NCBI RefSeq assembly: GCF_024521635.1
Contig: NW_026250413.1
Coordinates: 682,001-746,000, forward strand
DNA from: Tricharina praecox
Lineage: Eukaryota
Reading direction: 5' to 3'
Length of the DNA: 64,000 nucleotides
The notes below the pieces were generated by a model. That model saw nothing but the letters and a program-made list of their open reading frames with translations, did not search any database and was not told the origin of the DNA. A program made the translations under genes and the position numbers. This document shows, one piece after another, positions 12,001-63,228 of this stretch (position 1 is its first letter; every line of letters begins with the position of its first letter).

Positions 12001-12060
12001 GCAAAAGCACTTGGAATGTTTGACTCCACATGGCGAGTCTCAAGGGCTTCGTATGTATGA
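9010..12060 (+). CDS. Putative secreted alpha/beta-hydrolase (peptidase S9-like), multi-exon
   Basis: Hydrophobic N-terminus, WDLLGPFQLGTRE, LHGAGVEAD, nucleophile elbow GHSNGGQG (~10581-10605), QHGRDDDNVP and KGHWW as candidate Asp/His, and C-terminal LRTGVGQPDF. Exons are joined by canonical GT-AG introns. Confidence 0.75.
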
Positions 12061-12799
12061 GCCTCGCTGTTGTCTTTCATCCAAACAGACAGCCGAGGCA
12101 TGATCAAGACGGCACGAATTCCAGCAATGCACGTATGCACAAATGCATGCAGACACATACAGAATACCATCACGTGCCTGCTTGATACTGTTGTACTATT
12201 GCATCTGTGCCGTAGACCTCTCCTGCGCTGCTGTTCTGTTTGCCGAAGGGTGTTGCATGCATCTTGCATCCTTGTATTTAATACATTCATACATTCAGAT
12301 CGTGGTTCACATCTTCGACATAGAGACAATCATTCAACCAAAACAAACACTCTTCTTCTCGTTTCTGTGCACAGCAACAACACAACCTGCCCTACTAACA
12401 AGCAACTCACAAAATTTCCTCATTTGGACACAAATTTGGCCGACTCCAAATTAATTGAATTCCCATAAAAAACCCACGATTCAACCCTCTTCTTCCTTTC
12501 CCCTTCCTCCTCCCTTCTTCTCTCCTCCTCCCTTTCTCCCCTAACTCCCTTCAAATCTTCTAAATCCCTACCACCTTTCTACAGGCTTCTCTGGTGCTGT
12601 CCTCACCAAACCTACTGTTCCTACTCAACGTCCCAGCCCTCTCTCTCTAACATCTATCCCTCCTGAACTTCAGGAATCCTTCTACTTCCATCCTCAATTC
12701 TCTCCTCTTCTCCTCCTTCCTTTGCAGACCAGGTTTGCAGACCAGGCCCATTTCAAGCATCAATCCATCATCAAGGAATACATCTACTGCTACAGCAGA

Positions 12800-15700
12800 A
12801 TGTCCCTTGAGATGGAGCAGCGTCGCTCAATGGAACAGGATAAGAACCTCTTCATCCATGAAGATTCTCCTGATGGGTCCATGAAGGCCATCAACCCCTC
12901 CCAGGTATGTCTTCACAACTTATTACCCTCTACATCTTTCATTCCACTTTTCTCTATTTGCTGCAATTGTTGTGCTTTTTCCATTTCATCTCCATCCCCC
13001 CTCACGTCTCCCTGTTTACTTCCACTCCATATCATCATTTCTATCTTTCCTTCCTACATTAGCTACAATTGATATCCTTGCTATTCACATCTTCACCTTC
13101 ATCCCATCTTCCAATATTCATCGCTCATAACATCTCCTACACACTCACAATTGATACCCTTGCTATTCACATCTTCATCTTCATCCCATCTTCCAATGTT
13201 CATCGCTCATAACATCTCTTACACACTCTCATCTCTTTGGATTCTTCTTGTAATCACTACCTTCTGCATCTTCACTTCTTACTATTAATATTATGATTAT
13301 TATGTTCTGCTTTTTTCATTTTCTTTCCAACATCTACCACAATGACCAATCTTGCTTCTGCCTGTTTCAGCCTGTGTGATGATGCTGACACTGCACCAGT
13401 CTGCAGGAGAGGTGAACACGACGGATGGTGCTGGAGTCGAGGAATTCGTCCCACTTATGACTTCTAAGATGGCCAACATTGGCCATGGTCACATGATGGT
13501 ACCTTCCCATCCTATTTGAGTTTAAACTGACATCATAGTTTTTTGTTTGTTCTTGCATTTTTATTTTATTTTTTTAACCGTCTGCTGACTCGTTATTCTT
13601 ACACAGGATTCGAGCTTCATGAAGCACAACCATGCCGCCCGAGATACGACCAAGTCCGAGAACGCCGATGTTCGTGATCTCCTCGCGAAGCTTCAAGAGC
13701 AGCAGCGCCTTATCGATCAGCAGCGGGACGCCCTCGAGAGGAAGGACCGTGAGCTAGGCAAGGTTAGGTTCGATCCTCCGTCTGGCCGCAACAGCTACAA
13801 TACATCGCCAGCCCATGGACCAGGAGAGTCTACTGCTGGAACGATGAGATCTATGTCTCCGGGTACGAGGTATCCCGCCGGACTCGTCGTTCAGGACATT
13901 AAGGACGTCAACCGTCTCCAGTCGGAACTCATGGCCGCCAAGTCTCAGATCAATGTCATGAACGAGGAACTTGCCCAGACTAGGATCACCAAGCACACTC
14001 TGGAACAGGCTATGAGTCACTCTGGCGATGATCACGTTGGTCTTGAAGATGTTTCGGAGCACACTTTGGCCACCTTGCAATCCAAGTTCGCCCAGCTGCC
14101 CCGACCGGGTGCGGAGAGAGCCGATACGTGGCCTTCTGCTGGATATGACGAATCAAGCTCATCGTCGATGGAGTTCCGTGAGCCTCATTCCATCTCTGCC
14201 GGCCCCTTTGCCGGGGCGTCCGGAATCTGGGGATCGTCTGGAAAGAATGGCCTATCCCAGCTGCCCTCGATGCCGCTGGCCAACCCAGTCGATCTACAGT
14301 TCCCGGGAGCTCCTGGTCGGCGTTCGTCCGGCATGGAGCCGAGTGAGATTTACGGTGCAGGAAACCGTGTTTGGAATACCCAGGGACACCGCTCCTTTGC
14401 CTCCCAGTCGTTGGCGGGCCCGCCACCTATCAGCACCGATCCGCGTTACTTCAATAGTCGTCGAGCATCATACAACCCAGGTGCCATGCCCTTTACCGCC
14501 TCGGTCGATAGACTGTCGCCATCGGCGCAGTTCAATCCCAGTCCTATCGGAACACCGTTGGCCACACCTACTGGCAACGACTTTAGTGCAGCTTCTGCTG
14601 CGGCGATCTGGGGTTCAGGAGTTCAGGTATATATCTCTCTTTCTTTTTTGCTTCATACATATACTTAAGCACTTTCCAGGTACCGGGCTCTGCGCCCCCA
14701 GGTCCCGGACAGACTTATGTCTCTACAATTGAGCCTCTCAACTACCGTCGGCTCTTGGAGCGTAGTGTCAACTGCAATTGGAAGTACATTGTCGACAAGA
14801 TTGTTTGCAATAACGATCAGCAAGCTTCAATCTTCCTTCAGCAGAAGCTGAAGATTGGCACGGCCGAGCAAAAGCACGCAATCGTGGATGCCATCGTCGC
14901 ACAGGCTTACCAGCTGATGATCAACCGCTTCGGAAACTTCTTGGTTCAGCGTTGTTTTGAGCATGGTACGCAGGACCAGATTCAGGGAATCGCTAACGCT
15001 ATCCGTGGAAACACGGTGGCGTTGAGCATGGACGCTTTCGGCTGCCACGTTATCCAGAAGGCTTTCGACTGTGTCCCGGAGGAGTTCAAGGCCACGATGG
15101 TGAGCGAATTGCTTCGCCGCATCCCGGAGACGGTCATCCATAGATGTGAGGTCCTCTTCCCCCCGTCCTTTCTCTCCTCTCTAACTTTCTCAGATGCCTG
15201 TCATGTCTGGCAGAAGCTTTTTGAGCTTCGCTGGGCCGGATCGCCCCCACAAATCATGAAGTATGTCAACGAAGCCCTGCGCGGAATGTGGCACGAGGTT
15301 GCCCTCGGCGAAACTGGATCTCTAGTTGTGCAGAACATCTTTGAGAATTGCCTGGAGGGGGACAAGGTTGGTTGATTTATCCCACCGAGAGGTTCAATAA
15401 CTGATGACTGGAATAGCGTCCATGCATTACCGAGGTGCTTGAATACATCGATCTCATTGCCCGTGGTCAGTTCGGAAACTGGTGCATCCAGCACATCTGG
15501 TATGGTGACTTCCCTCCTAACCTGTAGCACCCTTTGCTCATGTACGCCGCCATACAGCGAGCATGGAGCTCCACACGATCGCAGTCGTGCCATTGATGTG
15601 GTGATTCAGAATGCCCCGGAGTACAGCATGGACCAGTACGCTTCGAAGGTCGTCGAGAAGTGCCTCAAGGTCGGCGGCAATGAATTCTTGGATAGATATC

Positions 15701-16034: not shown

Positions 16035-17574
16035 TCAAACTTCTTGATCAGAGCGTTAATTCCACACTTAGACCAACCTAATGGCTGATTGGGACCTTCG
16101 TTATCAACGACGTTCCTTTCTTTGGATTTCTTTTCTTAAATGATTTTACTTAGGGTTTCTTTTCTTTTCTTTTTCCTTTTTTTTCCTGCTTACGTTTCCA
16201 AGTTTGCACACACAGGATGAGAAGAGGACCCAAGGAGGCAGCAGGTATCATTTTTCGTTGGCGTTCACAACGCACAAGTCTCCTCGAGGGATTTGACGTT
16301 TTTTCTATATTTTTTTTTGCCTTCTTACCTTGCGATCCATAGATCGCAACATAGCGACGATACCTTTTCTTTCTGCGTTTCCGTTCTGTTCATTCTGTTC
16401 CTATTGTGCAGCAGTATCATCTTAATTCCCGAAATCTGCGGGGTCGTTTGGTTAGCAAAAAAAAAACTCAAGAGCTGGGACAGAGCCGATGTGGATGGAT
16501 GAGGGATTGAAGGACCGAGAAAGGGAGCTGTTAACGACTTTGCACTGTTTTTTTTTCGGGTTGTTTTTTGTTCTTGTACACTACATTACTTAGTCGAACA
16601 CAGTCCGTGGAGCTGTCATTCGAAATCAACACGATGGGGTGTTTTGCTTATACTTCAGCTTCGTTCTCGACTATTTGTTGTGATGAATTCTTTTAAGAAA
16701 CTATTATCCATGGCAGAGCTGCTTGGGGTTACTTTCAATCATAGATATCAGTACTGGAGCGAGAAATGGACACCGGTATGTACCTCCACCGTGGAGGAAT
16801 TTCTGCTAGACATTTACTACACCCCTCATACACTATGGTATGTACAGCAGTAGACACCAGCTACAAAACTACCGCCGTCTTCATCGACATCACCTTCAGC
16901 GGCCATTTTCCGAGCAGAAACAGAACAGTCCTTAACCTCGCAACAGTCACCGCAGCACTCCCAATCCCTACTATCCCCTGTGGACACCCCCGCATCGTTA
17001 TCGTCCACCTCGCATCTAGAATAGTGGTATGGAGAACGATTGGGGCTCGAGAGGACGCATAAAGGAGCTGAGGAAGGGACGGATGGAAGGGAGGGATGGA
17101 AGCAGTGGGGGAGTGAGAGCAGCATGAGAGCAGCATCATGGCCCATGGGCATACACGCAGGTATGTACTGCTTTCCGCTCAGTGGACTTCCTGCCTGCTG
17201 GGCAATGACTACATACGCTCCCCCTGGGTTTCTGACACTGCATTGCGATGAGTACACAGGCATTCTACCAGACAACTACCGCTACATACTTCTATGACCA
17301 TTGACACCTTCTTCCCTTTGAGACTCCGAGAGCGATGACACCCCTTCCTCATCCTCCCGCCTCTGAGAGCAGCAACTGGCAGAAGCAGAAACGGAAACGG
17401 AAACGGAAACGGAACGGACGGGCCGCGGAATGCCGTACATACCAGACACGACGCCGTTCCAGTAACGATTATCGGCGAGATGGAAACAAGGCCGGCCTAT
17501 GTTACCCGCGGCACCTACATCAACCCAGAATTGGCTACGATAGGAAGGGAAGGGGACGGAAGCAACGGGAGGAT

Positions 17575-17820
17575 GGGGAGAGGATTCTACGGGGACGGGA
17601 TTCTGCGGGGGCTGGATTTTGCGGGGACAGGATTGTGCGGGGACGGGATTCTGCGGGGACGGGATTCTGCGGGGACGGGATTCTGCGGGGACGGGATTCT
17701 GTGGGGATAGGATTCGGCGGGGATAGGATTGTGCGGGGATAGGATTCTACGGGGATGGGATTTGGCGGGGACTGGATTCTGCGGGGATAGGATTCTAAGG
17801 GGACGGGATTCGGCGGGGAC
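17575..17820. repeat. G-rich minisatellite, 16-bp unit GGGGACGGGATTCTGC, 15 full copies plus a partial
   Basis: Strict 16-nt period read directly; GGGG and GGATT are conserved in all copies and the other positions vary. Confidence 0.95.
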
Positions 17821-18557
17821 ATGGGCACGCCCATATATCACGAGTACCTACATCCTTTACCTCGAGAACATCCCACTGGGCATATCCCTATCTAGATGCA
17901 TTGCTGACGAGAATTAAATATTTAAACAGGTACTCATCCCAAAGCTGCTCCCACTACACGCATATATGCCACCTTCCGAGCCTTCCGAGTCCAGACGAAT
18001 CCCGAGTGAAACCCGACGGCTCCTTAGACACCATACCTACCTGTCAGCGAAGCACTCCGTACCTACTACGTCTACACCAACTCTACAACGATGACTTGTG
18101 AGGGTCTGTGAACGTCGAGATTCCACAGGTGTGGGTAAACTACTTATATCGGTGTGCCGAGAACGTCGGTGGTGATGGTGGTTGGCCCAGATATGAGATC
18201 CAACTCTAGGACTACCCAGACACATACCGGTATTGCATCCCAAGGAAAATCTATAGCTGTCCTGTCATGTAGGCTTAGTCTTCTACTGAGAGTTCAGTAG
18301 CCCAGTGCAAAGTTAATACTTTTGTTATGTAGGGCACCACGACACACTGGCAGAAGCCATTTCAGTATTAAATATACTCCGTAGCCACCGTTGGGGAGAT
18401 TTACTAAAAGTAAACCCGCCCCAAACGGTGGTTACTGCTAGAACTGGTTTTTTTTCTACATAGCGATACAACTGAGGCGGCTGGTGTTTCTCGCCTGTTC
18501 CTCCTGCTCTTCCTCCGCTTTCTCATCCTTGTCCGCCTCCTGCTGCTCCTACTGCTC

Positions 18558-20860: not shown

Positions 20861-23800
20861 ATGTTGCGGAGGAAATGCACGATCGAAAACGGCAGTGTCG
20901 TGTCCGAACGCGAGGACGATTTCTACGACGAAGGTGATGACCAGTGGGCGCATGTGCCTAGGAAGATATCGTCCGTGGACGAAAGCGCGGATAGGATGGG
21001 GAAGCGGAACGATGATAACTCCAACTATCGGAACCCCTACATCGAAGACTACGCTACGAGCAATGAAGACGAGGGGAGGAATCAGCAGGAAGAGGACGAT
21101 ACAGATGCGGAGGAGGTGCCGCAGTACCAAAGAAGACCCAGGCCTAGACCGGTGAGACTGCTCGTTTCTTTTCCTGCCGGAGATGAATTAACGAAAGCTA
21201 ACTGACCAACGAAAGGGGGTCAATATATTGATTGAGCACAACAATGACAGATCAGTATATTCAAACGATTTATATTCCGAAACGTCCCAGAGGCAGAAGC
21301 CTCGTAGGCATACAACCGTTAGGTTCAAGGAGCCAGAGGGGTCCGAAGAATACCGGTACGGTGTCGAGCTCAAAGCTCACTTGAAGCGAGTCCAGACGTT
21401 GCTCGCCGAAGCCAAGAGAACGCTGCTAGTCAAGACCGAAAATCCCAAGCAGGAAACGAATGTTGATATGGATGAATTATTCCGCCGATTTTGTGAGCGA
21501 GTCAAATGGGAAGAAGCCAAGAGGGCGGAACTATTGGAGCGGGACAACCGGATGATTGTGGAAGAGGCGAAGATGCTGCAAGAGGCCATGCTCGCCGAAC
21601 ACGCGAAAGAGAAAGAATTCGAGGCGAAGGTTCGGGCATGCGTTGTGAATCTTTTGGGTCCACAATGTCTGGAGTGGTCCTCTCAAGGAGGTCCTCCTCC
21701 TTCTCGCCCTCCCCTTCCTTCACCACCTCAGCAAGCTATTGAGCCCGTGTGTACATGGCTACCAAAAGCCCTGATTTGCAAGGAAGCGATAAAAGAGCTT
21801 GGTGTGAAATATTACGAACGGGTAAGATCATTGGTATTCATTCGTTTTCTTTTACATACTAACAGTTTGCAGGATGAGTACTTTCTGGTGGATCAACACC
21901 TGGAAACTTCTACCCAGGAGGAGCTGGTTGACCGAACCATAGTCTTGAAAGGTTTTCCTATTGCGCCAATATAAATCACAGAACCCGAAACTAATCATCA
22001 ATAGAATATTCCAAGAGATTCCAAGCTGCTTCAGTTGTTGCCGGGCCAAATGGAACCTGGTGCAAACACATCAAACTGCCAGGCGCCCGATATCCTGTGG
22101 TCATTCCAGTCGCTATGGGCCCCCATGAGGAATGGGATGACGACGAAGACAGGCATTACGAGTCGTCGTATACGGCCTCGTCCAGCGACTTATCCCAATC
22201 ATCTTGGGATGCGACTTCTGTTACGTCGAACACTTCCATGGATGTTGCGCCGAGTCCACCCGTTGCGCCGAGCCCGCCCGTTGCGCCGAGCCCGCCCGTT
22301 GCGCCGAGCCCGCCCGTTGCGCCGAGTCGGTCCGCTGAACTTATCTGGCCGATTCCAGCCGGTTGTGAGGACCTCAACGATCTCGAACTTGGGTGCAGCG
22401 AAGACGGTTGTATCGAAAAAAAATTAGTAGCCACTAAGGATATACATGAGACTTCACCAGTGGACGGAACACATGATAGCGCACCAACCCATGATGCACA
22501 TGAGAACTTGCAGACCGAAGCTTCAACACCAGTATCCCCGAAAGACACGGTGCCGAAAGAAAACAAGGCCTTACGAGAACATACTCACGCGAAATCACTC
22601 GTCAAACGGAGCAAAAAGAAGGGACTTGTGAAACCGAAGAGACATGCCCATACTATCAGGACTGGAGCGGAGCCAAATCACTCCATTGATACAAGCTCGA
22701 CAGCGAGTCCATCTTCCAAAATACCTACATCGTCACCCTCAACACGAACCAGACGCAAGGCAAAGTGGAATAAGAGAAGAGTGAGATCGGTACCATCTCG
22801 GAGCCCCGTGGTTAAAAACGACGCACAGGATATGGACTGTGATAATCCATATGCGTGGCCTCCGGGGCTTCCGCCATTGGGCCTCGACGTTCATTCACCT
22901 TCGCCGAAGGGATGGAGGGAGGGAGCAAGGACGCCACAGGGATCACATCCACAACTAGACGAAGCACAACTAAGCCGCCTGTTCATGCCGCCCCCTCTGT
23001 GGGCTTCGAATCGCTTGCAACAAGTCGTGGAAATGGCAGCAACACCAAGCGCTTCCGTCCGTGGAGAGAAGGAGGAATTACCCACCTTTGACGTCGTAGA
23101 CGCAATTCATCCAGATGAATCGCACAAACAGTCGCAGCTTGCTAAGCTCACGGAGCCTACTTCTCGGGATTTACAGCCAATGCTGAGTTCCCAGTTGCTT
23201 CCTGATCTGGCCGATGTGCAACGCTGGATCACAAACACAAGAATCACCTCTAGTTTCCCAGATTCAAACTTCACCAGCCCTCCAAATCTGTCGTCCGACC
23301 CCGCGGTACCCTCACATAAAGCCCCATCGGAATTTACACAGCGGAACCTCACTGGCGACAGATCAGAAGCACGGAGACATAGCGCATCGCATGGTAATGC
23401 ACAAATTTCAGCTCAAGAAGGTCCTCGGGCCGTACTTGAAAGAGATTCTTCGATCTCCCAGTGGATTTCGGATCAGGACCAGGACCCAAAGCTTTCCGAT
23501 GTCCAGACACGGCAGCAATCATCTAATCAGCAAGCTATCTCGCAGCAGGAAAAGGACACCACCTACGACTTTATCGAACAGACGGAGTCTCTCGTTCAAA
23601 CTCTAACCTCTGAGGTATCACGCATGCTAGAGAACGAATTGCGCTCTGTCAAAGAGAGGGCCAAAAACGACAGAGAAAGAAAGCGCCGACAGCGCTCTGT
23701 GCGGATCATTCACCATGTCCATAGCCGTTCGCGTCTTCACCTCATCCCGAATTCTCATTCCCCCAATTTCGAATACAGGGTACCATCGCCACCGCCGCGG

Positions 23801-25664
23801 CCGCCGGCGCCACATCCCTATATCCTTAGAAACGCTTCGTCTTCCTATCCCTATTTATCATATGTGGATACCCGTTATCCCCCCGGTTATCCCCCCGGTT
23901 ATCCCCCAGGTTATCCCCGTGACCCCCGAACTCCGGCCGCCCCCTCGTCAAGTACCGGGGCGGAGGGATCCGAGGGGCAGAATGAGCAGGAATCTACCCG
24001 AACAGCAGTCGTTGAGCAGCAAGATCTTGTGCCGAGACAAATTTGCAGGACTGACTCTGGAATGACAACATCTCTTGAGGTTAACGAAGCACCAGGGTTA
24101 CGCAACCGCCGGGGCGGTGGCGTTTCTAGTGGTGTTGCTGATGGTAATGGGTTGGCCAATATAACCAGATCGAACCCATCGCGAGCAAGGGAACCGGTGC
24201 AAGCCGGAAATCCGAGTTTCGGTGATTCGGAAAGAGGTGTGGAAGCCGCAGAAGCAGGTCCGATATGGGTAAAGGCGTTGTCTTATCCCACAGAGGAGTC
24301 CGTGATGGTCGACACCCGGTCCGGTAACCAGATACCTCCAAGGCCGTACACAATACCGATGCCTTTATTGTGTCCCCCACCCCGGCCTCCTAGCCATCTA
24401 CTCGAAGATCCCCCATCTCAACACTCGTCACATAATTTGGGAGCGGAAGACCGGAGTTTTGTCCTCATCCACGAGCTCGACGATAGCAGTCGGCAGTACA
24501 GGGTTAGCCACCGCCAGCACCACCGAGACCGTGAAACATTAAGTCGGCGAGATGCTACTCGCCACGGCCACCACGGAGACGGGGATAAAGCCATGGTTTT
24601 ATATCGTTCCGAACGTCGAGCGCAGTCTTCTTACAGCCCTGAGCGTCGACCACAATCTACACCTAGCTATAGACACCGATCACGAACGCCATCATCACGC
24701 AGCATCAGGGACACCGACTATGAGCTTCCTGGGCCTGCCTTTGTGGCGTCTGAATTTTCCAATCGACCATCGGAAACTCCTCCGCCCATTGCACGGCAGT
24801 TACCATTAACCATGGTTCATTATCAGCCACCTCCTCTTTGCCCAAAAATCACGAAAGCCAAAGTTGTCGATGTGTATCATCAGTCGCCTTTCAAGTTTGT
24901 CCCTCGCACCAGGGAGGTAGCACCGGATACATTCTTCGTTTCCATCCTCCTATCATCCCAATCATCCGGATCCGAGTATAAAGTATTTCGGATAGAGCTC
25001 GACAAGAGTGAGGTTGATGATCGAGCCCTATTCCAGAAGATAAAGTCAACGTTCCATGATATCCGAGGGTGGCGACGCAGGTTTTCATTCAAGGGAGTAA
25101 CCGACATCAAATTTGCCCAAGTATGTTTCCTCCCTTCAAATCCACTATTCACTGTTGCTAATCCATCCACAGTACGGCCAAGATGGACTCCCATGGCACC
25201 AAAACGCCGACCCCCAATTCCGCCATTTGATCGTCACCCCAATATGGCGTCCCATCGATTACGAAGCCTATGCCGGAAATCAGCTCCTGCGGTACTTCTA
25301 CAGCCCCAGAAAGCTACAACCAGCAAGCCACCAGTGGATAAACGCATTCACCGAGTTGAACGGCGGCAAGCCAGTACCAAAGATCCTCGATCTTCACGGG
25401 AAAAGGATATCGAAGGAGGTCTACGCCCCGCCGCTTGACGAGCCCTCTGGCCAGGGAATAATCTTTACCGAGGGTTGGCTGCCGGATAGGATCATTGCTA
25501 CTGTTGGAGCGATGGTCCTCGCTAGCTTCATAATCTCCTTGATATGGAGCTTTCTCAGGGGCCCGGAACAGGGGATTGCCGCAGGCAGCTATGTTCTCGC
25601 GGCTTGTTCGAGTATTGTGGGAATGGTGTCGCTGGTTAGTGCACTGGATTTTATGGGTTCTTAA
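20861..25664 (+). CDS. Large hypothetical protein (~1500 aa): coiled coil, DUF8035-like segment, long disordered region, two C-terminal TM helices
   Basis: Introns after 21151, 21821, ~21951 and 25120 join ORFs 20615, 21228, 22097 and 25113 in frame. WLPKALICKEAIKELGVKYYER-DEYFLVDQHL resembles a fungal DUF8035-type motif; the C-terminus GIIFTEGWLPDRI followed by two hydrophobic helices is a common fungal tail. The start could be as far upstream as ATG 20630. Confidence 0.6.
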
Positions 25665-31821: not shown

Positions 31822-32006
31822 CACTGTTCCGGGTCCAGAGAGGGGATATGGATGTACAATTATCTGTTGTGCGAATCTAAAAACTGGAATACCTATGACA
31901 ATGATATATAAACTTGAAACCACACCCAAACAAAAACGCAACCTCATCGAGCACTCGTACAATGCAACCAACCAATTCTCGCCCGACATCGACATGAAGA
32001 CACCGC

Positions 32007-33039
32007 TCACTGCCTATTCCCAGCCAACAACGGACTCCTCTCATCCGTCGGCCCGGGCCTAACCGCATCTACCAGCGCATCCACCTGCTTCCTGGCCCTC
32101 CTCTCCTGAATCTCCCACATCACACACATTACCAACAGCGCGCCCTGCAGGGTACCAGTGACCACATACGTCGCCCAACTACTCCACCTAGTGCCCTCCC
32201 TCATAGCCAGCGAGATCGCCCACACAAAGCTCCCGGGGGTCTGGATGCACATCATGGGAATACTCAGACTGCCCACATGCTTCAGTCTCCAGGTAGTATA
32301 CAACTGGGGAATGTACTGGATCGACGCGAGGATGGTGCTCTGCACGCCGAGGAAGTTGGCCCACCACACGAGCGTGTCCGAAGGCTGCGGCGGACGCGAC
32401 GGGTCCGCCGTCGCGGCAGTCGAGTGCAGCAGCGACAGGTAGAACGTCGCCACCGCCATCGCCACGAAGTGCACGATCGACGCGACCGTAATCCCCACTG
32501 CCGTGCGCTTCGTGGGTACGCGCGACCCCGGGATCGCGAGTGCGCTGCTGGACCGCGGGAGGTAGATGAGGAAGAGCGCGAGACTGCCGAGTGCCCTCCG
32601 TTAGCTCGTCTCCACGCAGAAGAGTGAGGAGACATACATAACAGCGAAACAGGCCCACTGCAGTCCCACCTGCGCAACGCCCATCGACGCCGCAAAGCAG
32701 TTAAAGCCGCCGATGCCCTTGCCGCAGCACCCGAGGACGCCCCATGACAGGATCAGGATGTTCAGGAACGCGCAGGTACCCGATGTTACCCCCAGGAGTA
32801 GGAACAGCGGGCTGATACCCTCCGACGTGCCGCGCTGGATAATCCGTATGTGTTGCGGGAGGTACGATATCTACACGAACATTCCCACGCGATTAATTGG
32901 GGGAGGGAGGTGCATTGGCCAACGAAGGACGTACGAGGATTCCAAAGAATATGACGAACGAGAAGACTAAATTCGCTACTGAGGGCGAGAGTAGGCTGGA
33001 GCACTCGGAAGGTATTTTGGCGAACGTGGTGAGCGACAT
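32007..33039 (-). CDS. PQ-loop repeat membrane transporter, 3 exons
   Basis: ATG at 33039; two PQ motifs (ISYLPQHIRII..SEGISP and IQYIPQLYTTW..GSLSIPMMCIQTPG); multiple TM helices; C-terminal dileucine signal DERSPLL. Confidence 0.88.
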
Positions 33040-33605
33040 TGTGGACGAGGACTGTCGTAAGGTGTGGAATTGGAGCTCGAAGCTCGAGGACTGTCCGCTA
33101 TCTAGGTCCTCTACGTAACTTACCTATCATAGAGCTCTACCCATGCAGGGAGGTGGTTGGGCCGTTGGCGTCTTGGCTGCAGCTACTTATCATCGGAGGT
33201 CACTCGACAGGTCTCGCTAATATCATAGCGGTGTTGTTGGAGAACGTGATGTGGCAAGGCCATGCGACAATCAATTGATTCTCTCTCTCTTAAAAACTTA
33301 AAACTCTAATCTCCTCCATAAGCCGATCGCTACGAAGTCTACTATGTTCGGTGGTATGTACAAGCAGAATGTCACAGATGTCCTTGCCTTCACCATCGTC
33401 CCGAGCCGCTCACGCCCGGTTCTCGGCATTACCCATTACCATTAGTTTTTTTTCATCCTCGCCGTGGTGAATGTACACCACAAACATGATCGTCCTGTGA
33501 CACCGAACCGAAGCCAACAGCCTATCACCAAAAAAAAATCAAGATATTCTGGAGGCATTTAGGGAATGAATTGACCAGTTACTGAAGCCGAGCCTCCTGA
33601 ATGAT

Positions 33606-34060
33606 ACTATGTCGTAAGTCGCTCCTACGTATCTATCTTGCGCTAGCATTGTACTGATGATTTTACAGACCTTGCCGATCATATGTGACTTCATCGGGAA
33701 CCGATAGTACTACGATGGTCTGGGATTGTCGTTTCCCGAAGAGGGTTCTCCATACGTTGAAACATGGCGCTCCCCTCATGGCTGAGGACGCCAACGATAC
33801 CGGAGCGAACTGCGCCTTGTGGGCATCCAGCAGTGACCGCTTCTACACTGGGGGCTCTGATGGCGCTGTTAAGATTTGGGACGTCCGACGTGCCGACCCA
33901 TTCATGAAGGACTTGGCTACCCTGGACGGTCAGGTCATGTCTGCAGCCTTCTCGCCGTCCTTCGATTCTCTCATTGTTGGAGTATGCTCAGGCAAGGCGA
34001 CCCTGTTCTCGATGAGGGGCGATGCCAGTGTCCCACCAATCGAATTCAAAGTTGACATTC
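33606..34060 (+). repeat. Left arm of a near-perfect inverted repeat: copy of the last intron and most of the last exon of the WD40 gene
   Basis: Reverse complement of 34555-35008, checked line by line; the only difference is one extra C (~33624) inside the intron copy. Confidence 0.97.
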
Positions 34061-34083
34061 ACTCGCATTTGACCCGGATATGA
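33609..34083 (+). pseudogene. Truncated WD40 gene copy with an intact spliceable ORF (139 aa; pseudogene or micro-protein)
   Basis: ATG at 33609, intron 33614-33668 (GTAAGT..CTGAT..CAG), TGA at 34081-34083. Encodes MSPCRSYVTSSGTDSTTMVWDCRF...KIWDVRR...EFKVDI plus a novel tail HSHLTRI. Confidence 0.55.
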
Positions 34084-34420
34084 GTATGAGTATGAGTAAG
34101 AGGTATATACATGGTCTGAAGAAGTAGTAAAGGTGAAGTATCTAAGTAACAGCAGTATCCCGCGCAAGACAATCAGGTAAGAAACTCCAGAAAGAAACAA
34201 ACAAAGTATCTAGAGCAGGTTGGATTCAAATGCAGCAAATCAGATATTCTAGAAAAAGAAACAAAAAAAGAAACAAAGTATCTAAACATGTTGGATCCAA
34301 ACGCATCAAATGAACCCAAGCCAATCCAACAAATGCACACGCTGTAAACTCCGTCAAACACCATTACCGCCCCCAAGCAAAGCAAACAAACAGAAAAGAG
34401 AGAAAAAGGAAGGACATCAT

Positions 34421-37400
34421 CTAGTAAGTAGCCCATGCAACACCGTTCTCAACCATCATTCTTCCAGAGTTGACGAGCTGGCGCGCGGCTTGCCTGCCAG
34501 CGTTCTCATCGTCGTCGTTTTCGTCGGCAAGATTACCACGTCCCTCCACATCGCGAATGTCAACTTTGAATTCGATTGGTGGGACACTGGCATCGCCCCT
34601 CATCGAGAACAGGGTCGCCTTGCCTGAGCATACTCCAACAATGAGAGAATCGAAGGACGGCGAGAAGGCTGCAGACATGACCTGACCGTCCAGGGTAGCC
34701 AAGTCCTTCATGAATGGGTCGGCACGTCGGACGTCCCAAATCTTAACAGCGCCATCAGAGCCCCCAGTGTAGAAGCGGTCACTGCTGGATGCCCACAAGG
34801 CGCAGTTCGCTCCGGTATCGTTGGCGTCCTCAGCCATGAGGGGAGCGCCATGTTTCAACGTATGGAGAACCCTCTTCGGGAAACGACAATCCCAGACCAT
34901 CGTAGTACTATCGGTTCCCGATGAAGTCACATATGATCGGCAAGGTCTGTAAAATCATCAGTACAATGCTAGCGCAAGATAGATACGTAGAGCGACTTAC
35001 GACATAGTCACCATGTTAATGTCCTCCTGGGGATTATCGAAATCCAGGATTGGACGAGGTCTCCTCCGGTCATGGCCTTGTTCAAAGTCCCAAACCCGGA
35101 CCTGCGTCTTAGCACGTTCGCCCCGACCGTTTACCGCTCCACCAGTAACAAACTGGCCTGATTCATGCACGAACATGTCAAATTGCCGGTTTGAGCCAGG
35201 CACCACACTCCACACCAACTTCATGGCACGGGCATCGAAAATCTCCAGGTCGCCAGTCTTGTTCCCGGACTTATTGTCGTATCCCACTATCAACCAGTCT
35301 GGCCTGACTTGGCCGTGCCAACTCACAGCAACTGCCTCAACGTTTTTCTTGAGAGGGGCGAAGCGATGTCCCTTCCCTCTATAACGACCGTCAGGGCCAA
35401 CGTCAAGAACTATGACATTGCCATCCTTTAGAGCAACAGCGAGTGCCTCCTCATGTACAGGGCTTGTTGCCATGCGAAGCACCTCACTCTTAACATCCAA
35501 CGAGTCGAGACAGGTGCCATCCTCTCCGAGCCAGGTTTTGACTGTCTTATCATAGCTTCCGGAGAACAGAACCCGTCCATTTTTAGAGTGTGCGATTGCA
35601 GACACCGTCGAATGAAGGAACGGATTCAAAGCTGCCGTTGGAGGATCTCGCAGGACTTTGTGCCCATCAAGCATGCGGATCTTGTCTTGTTCCAGTGACC
35701 CCAGCATGAGGTTTCCTGGCCTGTTGTATTCGTCACTGTGCGTACAACCTGCGAGAATGTTAGATCACTGAACAGACAAAAAAACAATCACATGGTCACA
35801 CTTACAACACAGAGCAAACCTGCTGCCGTCTGGCGACCAGCTGATGTCGATGATGTCTGAACTTCCTTCCTTAAAGATTCTCCACGGCTGCATGCCATCT
35901 CTAGCCATTGACTCCATTGCCCGGGTTTGCTCGCGCCTATTGCTGAAACCAAAGACCCCGCTACCCATCTCGCGGAGCAATCGAAGTGATGCCGACCCTG
36001 TTGTGTGGGGGCGCTCAGGCTTCAGAACCATGGTATAACCGGCGAACGGATATGGCAACCCCTTCTTCTTCATCCGGTAGCAGTCTTCAATGAACTTGAA
36101 GACGTCTTCCACTTCTCTTCCTGGTAGGAGCTGCACAGCAGAAACGAGGCAATCACGCCACGGGGACCTTTCAGCGTGGTATCCAATCTCTCGAAAGACA
36201 TCCATGCCGGGCAACGGGCCTTCGTCTTTCGCCAATAAGGAACGAACAATCTCGGCTTCATATATGGTGAAGCCGACATGGAGGGTAGTCGCTTCCCCTA
36301 ATCCCCCTGTCAGTCGTCGACGTTTATTATGAGCGCTCGAGAATTGGAAACTCACCGGGATTGGGCAACTCGGGCATCATCTTCATGCGATCGTAAGAAA
36401 TGTTAAGATAAGGACGCTGCTCGAGTCTCGTCCTCGTGATGAGTGACAATTCCAGGTCTCGCTTAACAGCCTCCTGTATTTCGAGGGTATCCAAGGGCAC
36501 AGGTGCGACTTTCTTCACGGATGGCATTACTCTGCGCGATTCAAATGGCCTTAAATCCATGATGACATGGTCGCTCGGTTCATATATTTCGAAGAAATTA
36601 TAGACGCAGCTCTCCTCGGTGCAATCAGGATTGTCATGCAACTGGCAGCGTCTGCTAAGGACAGTGGTGTTATCTGGTCCATTTGGGGGTGCAGTTGTCG
36701 AGGCCTCTGGCACTGGCTGTGGAGACACAGCAAGCAGTTCCTTCTTCGTTCCATGTTCAGCCTTTTTCTTTCTGTATTCCGCCTTTCTGATGCGTGCATT
36801 ACGGCGTCGTACCTCGTTCTCGGGGCTCTCCAGAGCGTCGGCAACAGACTTGAGACCGTAGCCTCCGCCCTGCGTCATCGACAAAGGCGTGTATAGCCTC
36901 TTGCCCGCAGGTGCCACGACACCCGTCTGCGCAACAGTTGAAGATGAGCCCACCGGGAGAGGGATATTGCCATCGACCTAGGATGTATGTTAGGCGCAAT
37001 TGTAGAAGTAATGAATGATGGAGATATACCTCATTGTCCACTTCCGGAGGTGCCGAAGACTCTCGTTCAGCAATAGCGGGAGGCCTGGGTGGACTGTCAG
37101 CAAAGCGCAAAAGTAACAGGTGAAGGCGCACTTACTCTATCTGAGACCTCTTCCGTTTTCCAGTGGTCTTGTGTGCCATTGCAGTGTGTTTGTGGAAACA
37201 GACAGAACACAACGTACGCAGAGGAGGCTGGTGGGATGCTGTTGATGTCGGTGCAGGGAAGGTTCGACTGCAGTTTTCACAGGACGTTTTAAGAAAGAGA
37301 GACGGCTGTGCTGGTGGCTGTAGGTCGGTATGAATGGCCGGCCGCCGATGTGGGTGTGGGGTTTGCGACGTGCGCGACGCCCGCAGCCCTAAGCCCCGAT

Positions 37401-38556
37401 CCGTGGGGGATTGCGACGTTCGTGGCCGTCGCAATCCCCGCGAGGCTGTATGCCTATGGGATCGGTCGTCTTGCGGGACATCGACAAGCTGAGGTCGATG
37501 CACGTCTGACGGTTTTGGGCCCGGAACAAACGCTGGCTGGGTCCCCAGCAGCCATCGCTGGTGGCCCAATGGAGCCGGCACAACATTTCTCGCAACGCTT
37601 TGTCCGTGCGCCCTGAAGCGCAACGGACCGTCGGGTTCCGGGTGCATCGCGGGCGCCATCCGCGAGTTCTCCTCCACATCTGAGGCTGGTGAACGTCTCC
37701 ACACACTCGTTCTCTCCCCCATGACTGCTTGTCTTCCAGCGGATGCCATCGGTGACATGTTTTCTACGGATGAATCGTACGTTTCCTCGGATTGGGTGAA
37801 TGGCATCAGAGCTGGCTGACACTGTGCGATCGAGAGTGTGCGTTTACTCGGTAGCGTCATCGGTTCGGCGTCGTCGAGTCCGCAGGGTCGAGCCAAGGAG
37901 CCATGGTGCGATCGTGGTACGGAACTTGGAGTAGATGCGGTGCTGCGGACAGCCTTGAATCTCAGCGCAACATCCATGGCTGTGGATAGTGGTGTGCGTT
38001 CACCCGGTAGGTGCTTGACAGCATGCGTGTTTCCTGCGCCGAAGAAGCTCCTCTCTGGACACTGGACGACATCTCTCTCCGCTGTTGGAGTGGTGCTCGC
38101 GAGGGTATGCTCGACTTCGGGAGGGTCGGGACAAAGAGCCGGCGAAGGACTTCTGTGCTTGAAGGGAGCAGGAACTGGTGCCATGACGTCGTCGACGTTG
38201 TCGCTGCCCCGTGGATTGGGTGCGAACGGGCGCGGCGTCTTGAAAGGCGAGCTTATCGACGATTGCCGTGACTGTTGATGGGCAGGAGTTCCGAAGAATT
38301 GGGTGATGGAGGGTTGGCTCCTGCGCGGGGAGGGAGCTGTTGCTTGAACGGACGACAAGAAGGTGTGGGATGTCGAACCTGGAGAGGCGGCTTCAAGCTT
38401 GGGACGGTGTTTTGCAGGAGTAGCAGATGATTGTTTTCGCCGAGAACCCTTCCTCTTGGCTGAACTGCTTTTGCTCGGCGGAGGATACTGCTCGTCGTCA
38501 TCTGAAATCACGATGGGGGCCTGTGGAGAACCCATGGCACGGTTGTTTGGCGACAT
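34421..38556 (-). CDS. raf1: WD40-repeat DDB1-CUL4-associated factor of the Raf1/Dos1/Clr8 (S. pombe CLRC) / DIM-9 (DCAF26, Neurospora DCDC) type, 6 exons
   Basis: Long disordered N-terminus followed by RPY..LHVGF, GSSDIIDISWSPDGSRFA..DEYNRPGNLMLG, LFSGSYDKTVKTW, and two WDxR motifs (VWDCR, IWDVR). The YNRxGNL WD start is recalled from Raf1-family proteins. Introns at 37135-37085, 37029-36978, ~36355-36307, ~35804-35750 and 35000-34947. Confidence 0.75.
34555..35008 (-). repeat. Right arm of the inverted repeat (native gene sequence)
   Basis: Pairs with 33606-34060; spacer 34061-34554 (494 bp). Confidence 0.97.
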
Positions 38557-45161: not shown

Positions 45162-46437
45162 CTACACCTTCGCCTTGGTCTTCTCCTTCGGCGGCGGTCT
45201 TGGACCCAGAGTCTTCAGCTTTATCGCCGCGATCTCTTCCACCAGCGCCGTATCTGCCAGCGCGTTCATGGCCGCTCGTAATTCCGCGTCTCTGCGATGT
45301 CGGTTAGTCCACGGTCCTCCGTCAGAGGCGGGGGATGTGGGGGATGTGGGGGAGGAGGGCGTACGATTTATTCGCGCCCCAGCCCTTCCCGATGACGCGA
45401 TCCTTGAACCCCCAGCCATTGATAGTGACGGTGATCCAATAGCCGCCATGATTGCCTCCACCGCCGCCGGTCCACGTGTACGTGAGCTGGGCCATACTCC
45501 CGCCTGCGAGGGCATTAAGACTCTGTTTCGCCATCTTATCTACGGGGGAGACCTTCGCTCTCTCGACGGCCATCTCCCTAATCTTCGGCTCAAACAGCCG
45601 CTCGAGCCAGTCGCGCGCAGTCTTGTAGCCGACGTCGGGCCCGCCCTCGGCGTCCAGCACTACCGCGCCAATGTACGCCTCGAAGCAGTCCGCGACGATC
45701 TTGATCTTGTTGCGGTCCTCGCTCATATTCGTGCGCAGGCGCTCGGGGAACCCGTAAGCGCGCGCGAGCTCTGATAGTGGCTTGTTGGAGACCAGGAGCT
45801 GGCGCATCTCCGAGAGCGGGCCTTCGCGGTACTCTGGGAACCGCCGGTAGAGAAGTGCCGACGAGATGGACTGTAGGTAGGCGTCCCCTAGGAACTCGAG
45901 CCGCTCATAGTGCGACTTTTCGACGCCTGGAAGCGACGCGTGCTCCCCCCGGATCGAAGAGATGTGCGTGAAGATCTGCGAGAGAAGGTCTGGGTTGCGG
46001 ATTGGTGGGAGCGGCGGCGGCCACGTCGTGTCAATGTCGGTGGCGGTGTCGGTCGTGGGCAGGAAGGAGAGGTCCCCTGAGGACTTCATCGAGTGCAGGG
46101 CTAGGATGAAGTTGGCTTTTTCGAGCCCGAGGGTCGCCGTGAGGGTTTCGACCGAGACCGAGGGGGAGAGCAGCGTTGACAGCCCTTGGCTGAACGCCGC
46201 GAAGGCGGATTTGATATCTGCCGGTTGCAGGGAGGTGGGAGCGGCTCCTGGGCCATTGGTGGGGATGGTGGGGAGGGTGATCGTGGTGGTGGGGGTGGGT
46301 ATTTCCTGGTGGCATGTCAGCGAAGTTCGTAAATTGAAGTGCTTTCCGACGCGGCGTACAGTCTTTGACTTCTTGGATGGATTCCCGCTGTCGCCATCAT
46401 CGCGGGTGCGCCTTTTTTTGGTCTTGTCGCGTGCCAT
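45162..46437 (-). CDS. Ribonuclease III (single RNase III domain plus dsRBD-like tail; Rnt1/Pac1-type), 3 exons
   Basis: RNase III signature YERLEFLGDAYL, ADCFEAYIGAV, and C-terminal GKGWGANKS..AELRAAMNAL dsRBD-like motif; basic N-terminal NLS-like sequence. Confidence 0.88.
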
Positions 46438-47139
46438 GGTGATGGGTGTAGTGGTGATGGGTGATGTGGGATTGAGTGTTGGGTAACGTGTCGTTGGAGG
46501 ACGCGACCATGAAGAAAAGTGGGACAGGGAAAGTTCGGATGGCACGAGCGAACCTCGGAGGCACTTCTACCTTGTGCACTTCTTCTGTTGGACCCACAAC
46601 GAAACCCAATCCAATGGATATCGAGTGTACTAGGTATTTCTATCCTACTCGAGAGCCAGATTTACCCTTTGTATTCGACGCATCCGTGAAGTACAATTAC
46701 GGGCAGATATACATACGGACTCCCGAGGACGTCATCGGTCGGAGCCGAGGGGGTGAGTCTCAATGCTCACGCACGATACAATCCAAAAATGTATTTATAT
46801 TGGCATTTGGAAATTGACTGCTCCATCGAGCGCGGTAACAAGATGGCGATGATGGTGGTGATGCTGCGATTTCGTTCGATTTGTACACACGCACTCGACA
46901 CCCCGCTCCAACACCCCGCACACACACAACCCCGCTGCAACACAATGCAAGATCGCTCCGTCGCACCACTTGCCAACCAACAACCGTCATTCCCATTTTG
47001 CGAGGTCCCCCTACCGGCCTTAAACACAACAACGCCCACCCTCCCCGACCCCTCTCCGACATGATCTATCGTGACAGGTAGAAAACAGAGAAAAAAAATA
47101 ACCGCCCTCCATCGCTTCGATCCGATGGTTTGTTTTCTT

Positions 47140-53239: not shown

Positions 53240-53791
53240 CGTGGTTGGTCTGCGTGGGTTCGGTAAGGTAAGGTGAATCGGTCAGCGGTTCTTGTAACTG
53301 TATCAATCGTCTTCTGGAATCGAGATGGATGGCGTCCTCGAGCAGGCTGGTGTCGAGAAGTGGGGTAGTTCAGCTCTTTCTTCCAGCCTCAGGCAGTGCT
53401 ACCTTCCCGTTTACGGTCCGCCGGTCGTTGGCGATTGCACAATTGCTGCATACGAGCTCCAGAGCCATCGGAGGTGGCAGACAACACCACCGTCAAAACG
53501 AAATATTCTTCTGAACTGACATATGTTTACCACTGCATAATCGAATCGTTCGCAATATTAGACGGTTGAACCTTGATCACGAGCAATAGATGGACGCACC
53601 TTTGCTGCGCTTGCCACTTTGATCCAAATTCTCAATTCTCAATTCACACAAGGGACATATGTGACGGAGTGGAACACATTCATGAAGCACTGTAGATTGA
53701 TAGATGGAAAAGGTGCAACAGAAGGTATCAATACGCCAGCAAATATATGTCAAAACTCCAGTAACCCATACCATCATTACTACACACGTCT

Positions 53792-53866
53792 CTCCTCCTC
53801 CTCCTCCTCCTCCTCCTCCTCCTCCTCCTCCTCCTCCTCCTCCTCCTCCTCCTCCTCCTCCTCCTC
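53792..53866. repeat. (CTC)25 / (GAG)25 microsatellite abutting the WLM gene stop codon
   Basis: 75-nt perfect trinucleotide run. Confidence 0.95.
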
Positions 53867-54535
53867 TTACTTCCCTGCGGCCGCCATCTTCTTCAACCTT
53901 ACCTCCGCCGCCTTAGCCATCATCTCCCTCCTACTCTCAGCACCACCCGCCGGCGCCGCAGTGGGGGTCACAGTCTTCCTCCCACCCCCACCGAGCGTAT
54001 GCGTGCCGCCACTCCAGCTCGCCCCACGATCCTGTTCCACCCTCCTCTCCGGCGGGGGCTCATAAAAAGTCTGATTACTCAGCGCCCTGCCGCCGGTAGT
54101 CCAATCATCCCTCTCGATCTCCTTCTCGAGGCGCCCACACAGCTCCCAAAAGTCCTTATCATGGTCGCCGAAGACGTTATGCGCGAGCTCGTGGGCGATC
54201 GTCTTCCGCACGGTCTTGTAGTCGCGATATCCATCGTACGCATCGGTGCGCAGACGCACCTCGATCAGCGCGCCGCGGTTGTAGTTGCGCCCCAGCGTCC
54301 GCGAGTTCGTGTCCGTGTTGCCGATCGGCTCCATTTCTGCCAGCACCGGGACCGTCCACTTGTACCGCCGCATCACGGATCGCACCCCCGCGTCTGACCG
54401 GATCCGCTCCAGGTATTCCAGCGCCCGGGACGGGTTGGGCAGGTGCGGAAGCGGCCGCAAGGTCGTGAATGTGTACATGTCGTTCGAGGAGGGCCCGGAG
54501 GGCGCGGGTCGCGCGGGTGGTATTGGTGGTGCCAT
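53867..54535 (-). CDS. WLM-domain (Wss1-like) zinc metalloprotease, intronless
   Basis: LAEMEP..TLGRNYNRGALIEVRLRTDAYDGYRDYKTVRKTIAHELAHNVFGDHDKDFW with the HExxH motif; TATAAA about 60 nt upstream of the ATG. Confidence 0.88.
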   Translation of the reverse strand: MAPPIPPARPAPSGPSSNDMYTFTTLRPLPHLPNPSRALEYLERIRSDAGVRSVMRRYKWTVPVLAEMEPIGNTDTNSRTLGRNYNRGALIEVRLRTDAYDGYRDYKTVRKTIAHELAHNVFGDHDKDFWELCGRLEKEIERDDWTTGGRALSNQTFYEPPPERRVEQDRGASWSGGTHTLGGGGRKTVTPTAAPAGGAESRREMMAKAAEVRLKKMAAAGK

Positions 54536-61271: not shown

Positions 61272-63228
61272 TCTAGGTATGCCGGTGGTACTCTGTGTAG
61301 GGCTGAATTCGAACAGAAAGGGTATTTTTGGTTTGATCTTTGAAGTTTTGTCTCTCAGGTTTTGTCTCTCAGATTCCAAGTTGCAAGTTGCAAGCTCTAG
61401 GTTTCGACCGCAGGCGTAGCTGGCGCTGTCTCAGACCCTTGGACTCTCAGATTCTCAGACTCTCGGACTCCCAGGAGCTCAGATGCCCAGGAGCTGCACA
61501 TGCCGTAGATACGGTATGTGTGGGATGTGGGATGTGTATAGTGTGTATGGTGTGTGATGTGTATGGTGTGTATGATGTGTATTTACTGGCTATTACCTAT
61601 GATAGGTAGTAGCTATCCCTTTGAAGGATGCTGCAGCCTATTCCTGTGCCTGTTCTTGTGCTGTTCCTGTTCTTGTGCTGTTCCTGTTCCTGTGCTGTTC
61701 CTGTTGCCGTTCCTGTTGCTGTTGCTGTTCCTGCTCGGCATGCTGCTGTGTGGCTCGTCTGCAGGTACGGCATTGTAGCATCGCATAGCACAGCATAAGC
61801 TGCTATTCGTTAGTCAGGTACTGCCGTATCATAGAATACGGTATCAACCAATACCGGGGCCTATCATATGTACCGGGGACCTATCCTATCCTCTGAGCTC
61901 TCAGCCCCCGCGGACACCAGTGGGGGGGCTGAAGCCCGACTCTAACTAGATTCTAGTTATAGATCTGGACTGGAGTCTGGACACAACTGTCAACAGTGAA
62001 CACGAGCCCATCGGGGGGGAACGAAATTGGCGGAGTTAGGCTCCGCTCTGCACTCCGCACACTTCACTCCGCGCTCTTCACGAGTTATTCCTGCAACAGA
62101 TGCGATGGACGGAGATGCGATGGAGAGGTTCTCACGGAAACTGCTTGGAAAACATCGAATGCCCGACCAGGAATGGGACTTTGCGCCGGTTGCCAGTCCA
62201 GGAATGTACTGGTACCTACAACATTTAGGCACCGTAGCTACTGTACTCACCTATTCTTGCGAGAAATAGGGTATTCTCAAGAACAAGCTCAAGCTCGACG
62301 GGGAAGTTGAGTAGAGTTCAACGACACTCACTTCACCCACTCCGCCCCTCAAGCGAGACAAATCATTCCGGCTCCGCTGCGATCCGGGGTTCGATGGATC
62401 ATAGGGGCAGCTTGAGTTGCAGCCACCAGTCTTGGTGTCAGCGAGGCAAGTCTTGTCAAATCTTGTCAAGTCGCATCCAGTCGATCCGCTGCGATCGGCA
62501 GGTGCAACCAGTTGCCAGGCATTTATTTTCTTATTTTTCTCATGTATTTTTCTTATTTTTCCCAGGCATCCTTCCTTCCTGCGGCCTGCGGCCGCACGGA
62601 CAACTGCGGAGGAAGAAAGAAAGAAAGAACGAAGGCGTGCAGGAATGCGAAACGCAGAGTCTCAAATTCCTGCTGTGCTGTTCTGCTGTTCTGCTGTTCT
62701 TTTCTGTCACTCCGTCAGCGAAAAGGGGGGAGAGGCTGAGGGGCGGGGAGGGGAAAAGAAACATGATGGAGGGGGAGGGGAGGAGGAGGAGGAGGAGGAG
62801 GAGGAGGAGGAGGGGGAGGAGATGGAGGAGAGGGAGACGAGACAGTAATTTCCCACCACGTTGCGGCGAGGACGATGACGATGACGATGACGATTACGGT
62901 GACGATGGCGCTGGCGATGATGGCGCTGGTGATGATGCTGCTGCTGCTGATGGTAGTGCTGCTGATGGTAGTGCTGCTGATGGTAGTGCGCGCGCGCGTG
63001 CGGGTTCTCGTGAAGAAGAAGCAGCTGCGTGGAGCTGCGTGACGGCCGACGAATGGACTTTCGGAATCGGAACCGGCCAATCAACGTGTTAAGGTGCGGG
63101 GGACGCAGGTACCGTACATGGAGTACATAGAGTACGAGGCGCGCGGAAATGTCGATAATAATAATACCGTAATGTGTGGCAGGATTTGGATTTTGCCATC
63201 TGCAGACTGCAGACTGCAGGTACGACGA

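Follow-up and report, generated by a model that had tools for sequence, protein, structure and literature searches.

A 64,000-nucleotide (nt) stretch of DNA from Tricharina praecox (RefSeq assembly GCF_024521635.1, contig NW_026250413.1, positions 682,001 to 746,000 of the forward strand; hereafter ‘the window’) carries a gene for a Raf1/Dos1-like WD40 DCAF and, just beyond its 3′ end, a near-perfect inverted copy of part of that gene. A 454-nt piece that runs from the end of exon 5 through the last intron into the last exon, most of which it includes, appears to have been copied in reverse and inserted 360 nt past the stop codon, in intergenic DNA in front of a gene for a PQ-loop repeat membrane protein. 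The most likely cause would be a replication template switch, or microhomology-mediated repair, using the trinucleotide ACT. On balance we read the copy as a real fold-back duplication of very recent origin, whose capacity to form a hairpin is no more than latent. Positions are those of the window, counted from its first letter.

Aligned globally, 33606-34060 (455 nt) and the reverse complement of 34555-35008 (454 nt) show one 1-nt indel and 0 mismatches. A repeat search of 32000-37000 returned one long inverted pair, whose arms (33625-34060 and 34555-34990) are each 436 nt long and 100% complementary; chance cannot account for a perfect match of this length. The gap between the full arms is 494 nt. 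Their sole difference is an additional C in the left arm, which has CC at 33624-33625 where the parent intron has a single C, 18 nt from the arm's outer edge. Beyond all four arm boundaries the flanking sequence is unrelated. The right arm ends 134 nt short of the end of the parent stop codon (34423-34421), and the left arm lies 360 nt away from that codon (34420-34061). A scan of the whole window, in which the count of N is 0, found 43 inverted pairs; among the 25 longest, this pair is the longest and the 24 others are simple repeats of the CTC/GAG type. The repeat is laid out as follows:

33606-34060, + strand: left arm, an inverted copy of a 3′ segment of the parent gene (repeat search, alignment, WD40 Pfam match of its frame)
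33606-33613: left arm, copy of the exon-5 tail, 8 nt
33614-33668: left arm, copy of the last intron, 55 nt (54 nt in the parent), with one additional C at 33624/33625
33669-34060: left arm, copy of the last exon, 392 nt
34061-34554, − strand: spacer or loop, 494 nt, made up of 360 nt of native 3′ flank (34061-34420) and the last 131 coding nt with the stop codon (34421-34554)
34191-34284: imperfect tandem duplication of about 64 nt in the 3′ flank part of the spacer (repeat families D1 and D2)
34555-35008, − strand: right arm, the original segment within the parent gene, made up of the final 8 nt of exon 5, intron 5 (35000-34947) and exon 6 as far as 34555
33606-33608, and again after the arm at 34061-34063: ACT microhomology, 3 nt, read from the junctions

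Because the copy contains an intron, the duplication took place at the DNA level and the copy is no retrocopy. The copied splice signals are preserved. On the + strand the left arm carries a frame of 140 aa (amino acids), open over 33661-34083, which still matches WD40 in Pfam. The copy is intergenic, with the Raf1-like gene ending on one side of it and the promoter region of the PQ-loop gene on the other. The probable ATG of the latter is at 33039-33037, and its upstream (promoter) region, 33040-33605, adjoins the left arm. A preliminary description of this DNA had given the same arm coordinates, the single 1-nt indel and the 494-bp spacer, all of which the repeat search and the global alignment reproduce. 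It had also placed the last intron in the copy and concluded on a DNA-level duplication, as the gene model and the contents of the arms bear out, and had put the left arm about 360 nt from the parent stop codon, a distance now found to be exactly that. The PQ-loop promoter from which it envisaged rightward transcription would belong to a minus-strand gene (PF04193) to the left of that arm.

The parent gene and its two neighbouring features are modelled as follows:

34421-37179, − strand: Raf1/Dos1-like WD40 DCAF gene, short model of 828 aa, six exons, all introns GT..AG
37179-37136, 37084-37030, 36977-36356, 36297-35806, 35748-35001 and 34946-34421, − strand: exons of the short model
37180-38556, − strand: putative N-terminal extension of the Raf1-like gene, an open exon-1 frame up to an ATG at 38556
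32007-33039, − strand: gene for a PQ-loop repeat membrane protein, downstream neighbour (PF04193, E = 6.6e-10 and 3.7e-13)

The six-exon model translates without internal stops. Its exon-1 frame stays open for 459 further codons upstream, which gives a long model of 1287 aa. The extension has no Pfam match and is low in sequence complexity; it is weakly colinear with the N-terminal parts of the orthologues from Geopyxis (1326 aa; E = 0.002) and Sphaerosporella (1052 aa; E = 8e-6). Orthologues across Pezizomycotina are 760-1400 aa long, which is comparable with the long model, and it is plausible that the real protein has 1287 rather than 828 aa.

Pfam gave only generic WD40 signals, in exons 4-6, and no family on exon 3. 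Searched against the PDB, the last exon has as its top match entry 4o9d, ‘Rik1-associated factor 1’ (Schizosaccharomyces pombe Raf1), with E = 6.4e-24 and the runner-up at 2.8e-10. Exon 5 is colinear with residues 51-251 of 4o9d (E = 7.5e-11), a part in which generic multi-repeat WD40 proteins outscore it. For the Wilcoxina orthologue (P0002) 4o9d is again the top match, at E = 2.6e-51 and over residues 21-419 of 428. The C-terminal seven-bladed WD40 propeller of the parent is specifically homologous to Raf1 (also known as Dos1, Clr8 and Cmc1, the DCAF of CLRC), beyond a generic WD40 likeness and over the whole solved domain, with about 30-35% identity in the aligned part. Unlike the crystallised Raf1 fragment, the parent has a long disordered N-terminal region without a counterpart there. 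In the last-exon alignment WDCR and WDVR of the window protein, both encoded in the right arm, pair with WDSR and WDLR of 4o9d, so that two WDxR motifs, the DCAF signature, stand at the positions of Raf1 aa 515-518 and 573-576. Both motifs of Raf1 are needed for Rik1 binding and for methylation of histone H3 lysine 9 (H3K9) (PMC3271066). The matches support a Raf1/Dos1-type WD40 DCAF, and they agree with the Raf1-like identity and the presence of both WDxR motifs within the arm that had been put forward in the preliminary description. Raf1/Dos1 and DCAF26/DIM-9, the latter in the DCDC complex, belong to one family of CUL4-DDB1(Rik1) substrate receptors. Neurospora DCAF26 (NCU01656) is listed as the homologue of Raf1/Clr8/Dos1/Cmc1 in Table 1 of PMC2944796, and NCU01656 is dim-9 (PMC2973830). 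By way of the Raf1 homology of DCAF26 given in these papers, the parent would be an orthologue of Neurospora DIM-9/DCAF26.

A protein homologue search returned 14 proteins at E ≤ 0.001 among 2285 candidates, and a wider one, which scored 8000 candidates, returned 54. Of the named proteins, the nearest are from Pezizomycetes (Wilcoxina with 44% and Sphaerosporella with 43% identity to the model) and remoter family members from Orbiliomycetes, Eurotiomycetes and Leotiomycetes; there is no Neurospora protein among the 54 matches of the wider search. No match is identical to the window protein, and the organism's own proteins seem to be missing from the searched collection, where the orthologues are labelled ‘WD40 repeat-like’ or ‘hypothetical’ only. 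A protein atlas search gave generic WD40 cluster names only, with no Raf1 or DIM-9 label.

How the copy may have arisen is suggested by its surroundings. The spacer is the native 3′ flank of the Raf1-like gene itself: a metagenomic relative of the gene, described below, is colinear with the window as far as 34322. An original segment, its native flank and a reversed copy form the layout expected from a fold-back template switch, and the locus accordingly matches the product of such an event. The empty site would have read ...gaatgat/actcgc..., sharing 3 nt with the copied segment, although the ACT microhomology by itself points only weakly to a mechanism. The repeat searches of 32000-37000 and of the window showed neither transposon-like features nor terminal repeats, and no further copies. 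The parent coding sequence is untouched by the duplication. The sequence gives nothing in favour of selection on the copy, which has no upstream exon, and the copy is therefore most readily taken for a structural mutation that is neutral or slightly deleterious. Fold-back inverted duplications as a class share with it the same layout, a junction microhomology of a few nt and the lack of transposon features. It differs from that general class in that a silencing gene was struck and the copy placed within possible read-through reach. We regard the repeat as a further example of a structural mutation of known kind, and of a route by which hairpin loci are known to arise.

The age of the event was judged from the arms themselves and from a metagenome scan with the last exon, which matched 283 stretches, 35 of them encoding a relative. 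Only one of these loci (L001) is a close relative; the other 34 encode distant WD40 proteins and were left out of the comparison. L001 is a contig of 1484 nt with 72% aa and 77% nt identity over 730 nt. It aligns with window positions 35041-34322, that is to about 100 nt past the stop codon, and, as expected, with the left arm. The preliminary description had proposed looking for the same repeat in related genomes. In the one close relative available (1 of 1) it is absent: no inverted repeat occurs anywhere in the 1484 nt, about 850 nt of which lie beyond the stop codon. The repeat may be confined to this lineage, or even to this one strain. Since the 3′ flank can be aligned for only about 100 nt past the stop codon, the pre-insertion site is not reconstructable from L001, and on so short a contig any synteny with the PQ-loop gene is out of view. 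A weak colinear patch shared with L001 at 34137-34108 (E = 0.92) is not significant; the tandem duplication at 34191-34284 may explain its offset.

The last intron of L001 (its positions 45-110) has CC, as does the left arm of the window, where the parent has C. The copy would thus keep the older state, the parent having lost a base after the duplication, unless the difference is a base-calling error. Substitutions between the arms number 0 in 454 nt, which points to a very recent event or an artefact.

An artefact of assembly or library preparation, in which a chimeric fold-back molecule or a mis-join made the left arm and the genome is in truth single-copy, is unlikely in our judgement but deserves to be taken seriously; that the repeat is physically real we hold to be considerably the more probable. 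Arms of 100% identity are what an artefact would give, the repeat occurs a single time within the window, and displacement amplification is known to yield inverted chimeras with short microhomology. The repeat nevertheless stands mid-contig in gap-free sequence, away from the contig end, and its outer junctions run into unique sequence that makes sense, leading at one end to the region upstream of the PQ-loop gene and at the other into the remainder of the Raf1-like gene. Consensus assemblers, moreover, rarely insert a 455-nt segment from rare chimeric reads. The arms differ by one base near the uniquely mappable edge, with the copy in the L001 state, and so are not simply one sequence written twice; this one-base difference weakly suggests that there are two real loci. 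Base-level quality looks good, since other long frames of the window are unbroken (among them one of 582 aa, NuoG-like, and one of 1147 aa). Several points weigh against a real and young fold-back duplication even so. It is the assembled sequence that places both arms in one molecule. A 3-nt microhomology arises by chance with a probability of a few percent. Gene conversion can keep the arms of an inverted repeat identical, so that identity is no strict proof of youth, and the absence of the copy is known from one relative, on a short contig and of a different species (72% aa identity), which has little bearing on close relatives. The lack of a selected function, finally, is an argument from absence of evidence.

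Given a real duplication, its latent property would be that a Raf1 transcript not ended within 360 nt would span both arms and fold into a perfect double-stranded RNA (dsRNA) stem of about 454 bp; a rightward transcript from the side of the PQ-loop promoter would do the same. In a fungus competent for RNA interference (RNAi) the stem could be diced into small interfering RNAs (siRNAs) against the last exon. The predicted fold of a transcript from 35008 to 33606 has such a stem of about 454 bp, in keeping with the 400-450 bp or so foreseen in the preliminary description; its minimum free energy of −1117 kcal/mol is trivial given the repeat and comes without a shuffle control. Neither AATAAA nor ATTAAA occurs in the 360-nt 3′ flank, which holds only the degenerate words UAGAUA, UGUAUA and UAUAUA, at 137-312 nt. 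Fungal poly(A) signals are degenerate. Typical fungal 3′ untranslated regions (UTRs) are shorter than 360 nt, so that most Raf1-like transcripts may well stop before the left arm.

About 10 kb (kilobases) from the hairpin lies an RNase III frame of 414 aa (45325-46566, − strand), with a single RNase III domain (PF00636, E = 6.6e-21) and best PDB matches to the Rnt1-type entries 7dey, 5t16 and 4oog (E about 1e-30). It was considered as a Dicer gene and rejected on account of the single domain and the Rnt1-type matches; by its sequence features the product is a Rnt1/Pac1-like dsRNA nuclease.

Functions can be imagined for the repeat, and we weighed three against the neutral duplication that we favour. 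One is a functional self-targeting hairpin: read-through or rightward transcripts would give siRNAs that lower the Raf1 messenger RNA, either post-transcriptionally or by way of H3K9 methylation, as negative feedback on the silencing machinery's own DCAF. This is reasonable in kind and drawn from the geometry of the locus, in which convergent arms enclose a 494-nt loop and the WDxR exon falls within the stem, and we consider it quite improbable. Hairpin transgenes do silence fungal genes (PMC3733888), and silencing is known elsewhere to act back on genes for its own machinery. Heterochromatin marked by H3K9 methylation forms on clr4+ and rik1+ in mst2 epe1 mutants of S. pombe and needs the clr4+ 3′ UTR region, not Dicer (PMC4395908); in Caenorhabditis elegans, siRNAs target the eri-6/7 locus (PMC7603289). 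Yet the inverted copy is absent from the sole relative compared, and the arms have not diverged, so that there has been no time for selection to show. The left arm, 360 nt past the stop codon, lies beyond the roughly 100 nt of conserved 3′ flank and beyond several U-rich or UAGAUA-type stretches, and the RNase III gene of the window is Rnt1-like and no Dicer. We are equally doubtful of a broader form of the idea, a newborn self-targeting hairpin or premeiotically methylated repeat on an H3K9-methylation gene, in which siRNAs, H3K9 methylation or 5-methylcytosine would lower the gene's own DCAF product and a negative-feedback rheostat would be seen at birth.

The repeat might also be a premeiotic substrate, for methylation of the type known as methylation induced premeiotically (MIP) or for repeat-induced point mutation (RIP). 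Its arms would be methylated at the next sexual cycle and elongation through the last exon impaired, and the outcome would be an epimutation and no regulator; we rate this as very unlikely. MIP-type methylation leaves no sequence trace. In Neurospora, 155 bp of perfect homology is enough for RIP when the repeats are closely positioned (PMC4858203); the present repeat, at 454 nt, far exceeds that length. Repeats are methylated without mutation by MIP in Ascobolus (PMC6709928), which is a Pezizomycete, as are the nearest named relatives of the Raf1-like gene. The arms nevertheless show 0 C-to-T differences, and with 0 substitutions in a repeat so far above 155 bp RIP has not been active since the duplication. 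A scan of RIP indices in 1-kb bins had 7 of 64 bins passing the usual thresholds; none is AT-rich (GC 0.50-0.58), and these bins were not taken up as evidence of RIP. Least credible of all, and in our view scarcely to be expected, is a + strand mini-gene that starts at an ATG at 33609, splices out the retained intron and encodes a WD40 fragment of about 139 aa, which with its two WDxR motifs would act as a decoy for DDB1/Rik1. The splice sites needed are intact in the copy, whose exon-5 part supplies the in-frame ATG, and the open frame 33661-34083 ends in 7 new codons. A fragment of about two blades, out of a propeller of seven, is however unlikely to fold by itself. There is no upstream exon, an in-frame stop stands at 33567-33569, and the copy has no promoter evidence, no conservation and no divergence from its parent.

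Set beside known systems, the fold-back duplication resembles the loci of plant proto-microRNAs (proto-miRNAs) and Drosophila hairpin RNAs (hpRNAs), which are born by inverted duplication of a target gene. Like them, it is an inverted repeat, long and near-perfect, that stems from a protein-coding gene, and it could give siRNAs against its source gene. Unlike in those loci, the copy adjoins the 3′ flank of its own parent, so that one arm is the functioning gene; and the repeat is absent from the one close relative compared (1 of 1). With the feedback at clr4+/rik1+ and eri-6/7 it would share the proposed concept, a silencing pathway that throttles the gene of its own component. The clr4+ feedback depends on 3′ sequences in a convergent arrangement; unlike what is proposed here, it is, as described in PMC4395908, independent of RNAi, confined to mst2 epe1 mutants and free of any inverted duplication. 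A limited literature search did not turn up a Raf1/DIM-9 gene described as carrying such a repeat, and in the text of a re-analysis of fungal hairpin RNAs (10.1101/2022.09.15.508153) the terms ‘inverted’ and ‘duplication’ occur 0 times.

If the repeat is physically real, it is the natural equivalent of a hairpin knock-down construct, attached to the gene for the substrate receptor of an H3K9 methyltransferase complex, in a host class, the Pezizomycetes, that is known for premeiotic methylation of repeats. It would be a place to ask whether a fresh inverted gene duplication gives siRNAs or methylation at once, how a genome tolerates an inverted duplication on a silencing gene and how hpRNA loci begin. 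Should it be an artefact, or transcriptionally silent, it is only a small structural variant, and at present nothing raises the repeat above that.

Some further features of the window were recorded. Runs of CTC and GAG triplets at 53788-53873 and 62731-62847, on opposite strands and 8.9 kb apart, make up nearly all of the other inverted repeats and are probably microsatellites coding for Glu/Ser-rich segments. The unbroken frame of 1147 aa at 21995-25435 (+ strand) matches no Pfam family at E ≤ 1e-5. Positions 17542-17852 hold a tandem array with a 16-nt period and about 20 units, reported by the search as 13 overlapping copies of 119 nt. A region of lower GC content (0.46) and strongly negative GC skew extends from 12001 to 14000 and contains two tandem copies of an 82-nt unit, of 95% identity, at 13065-13228.

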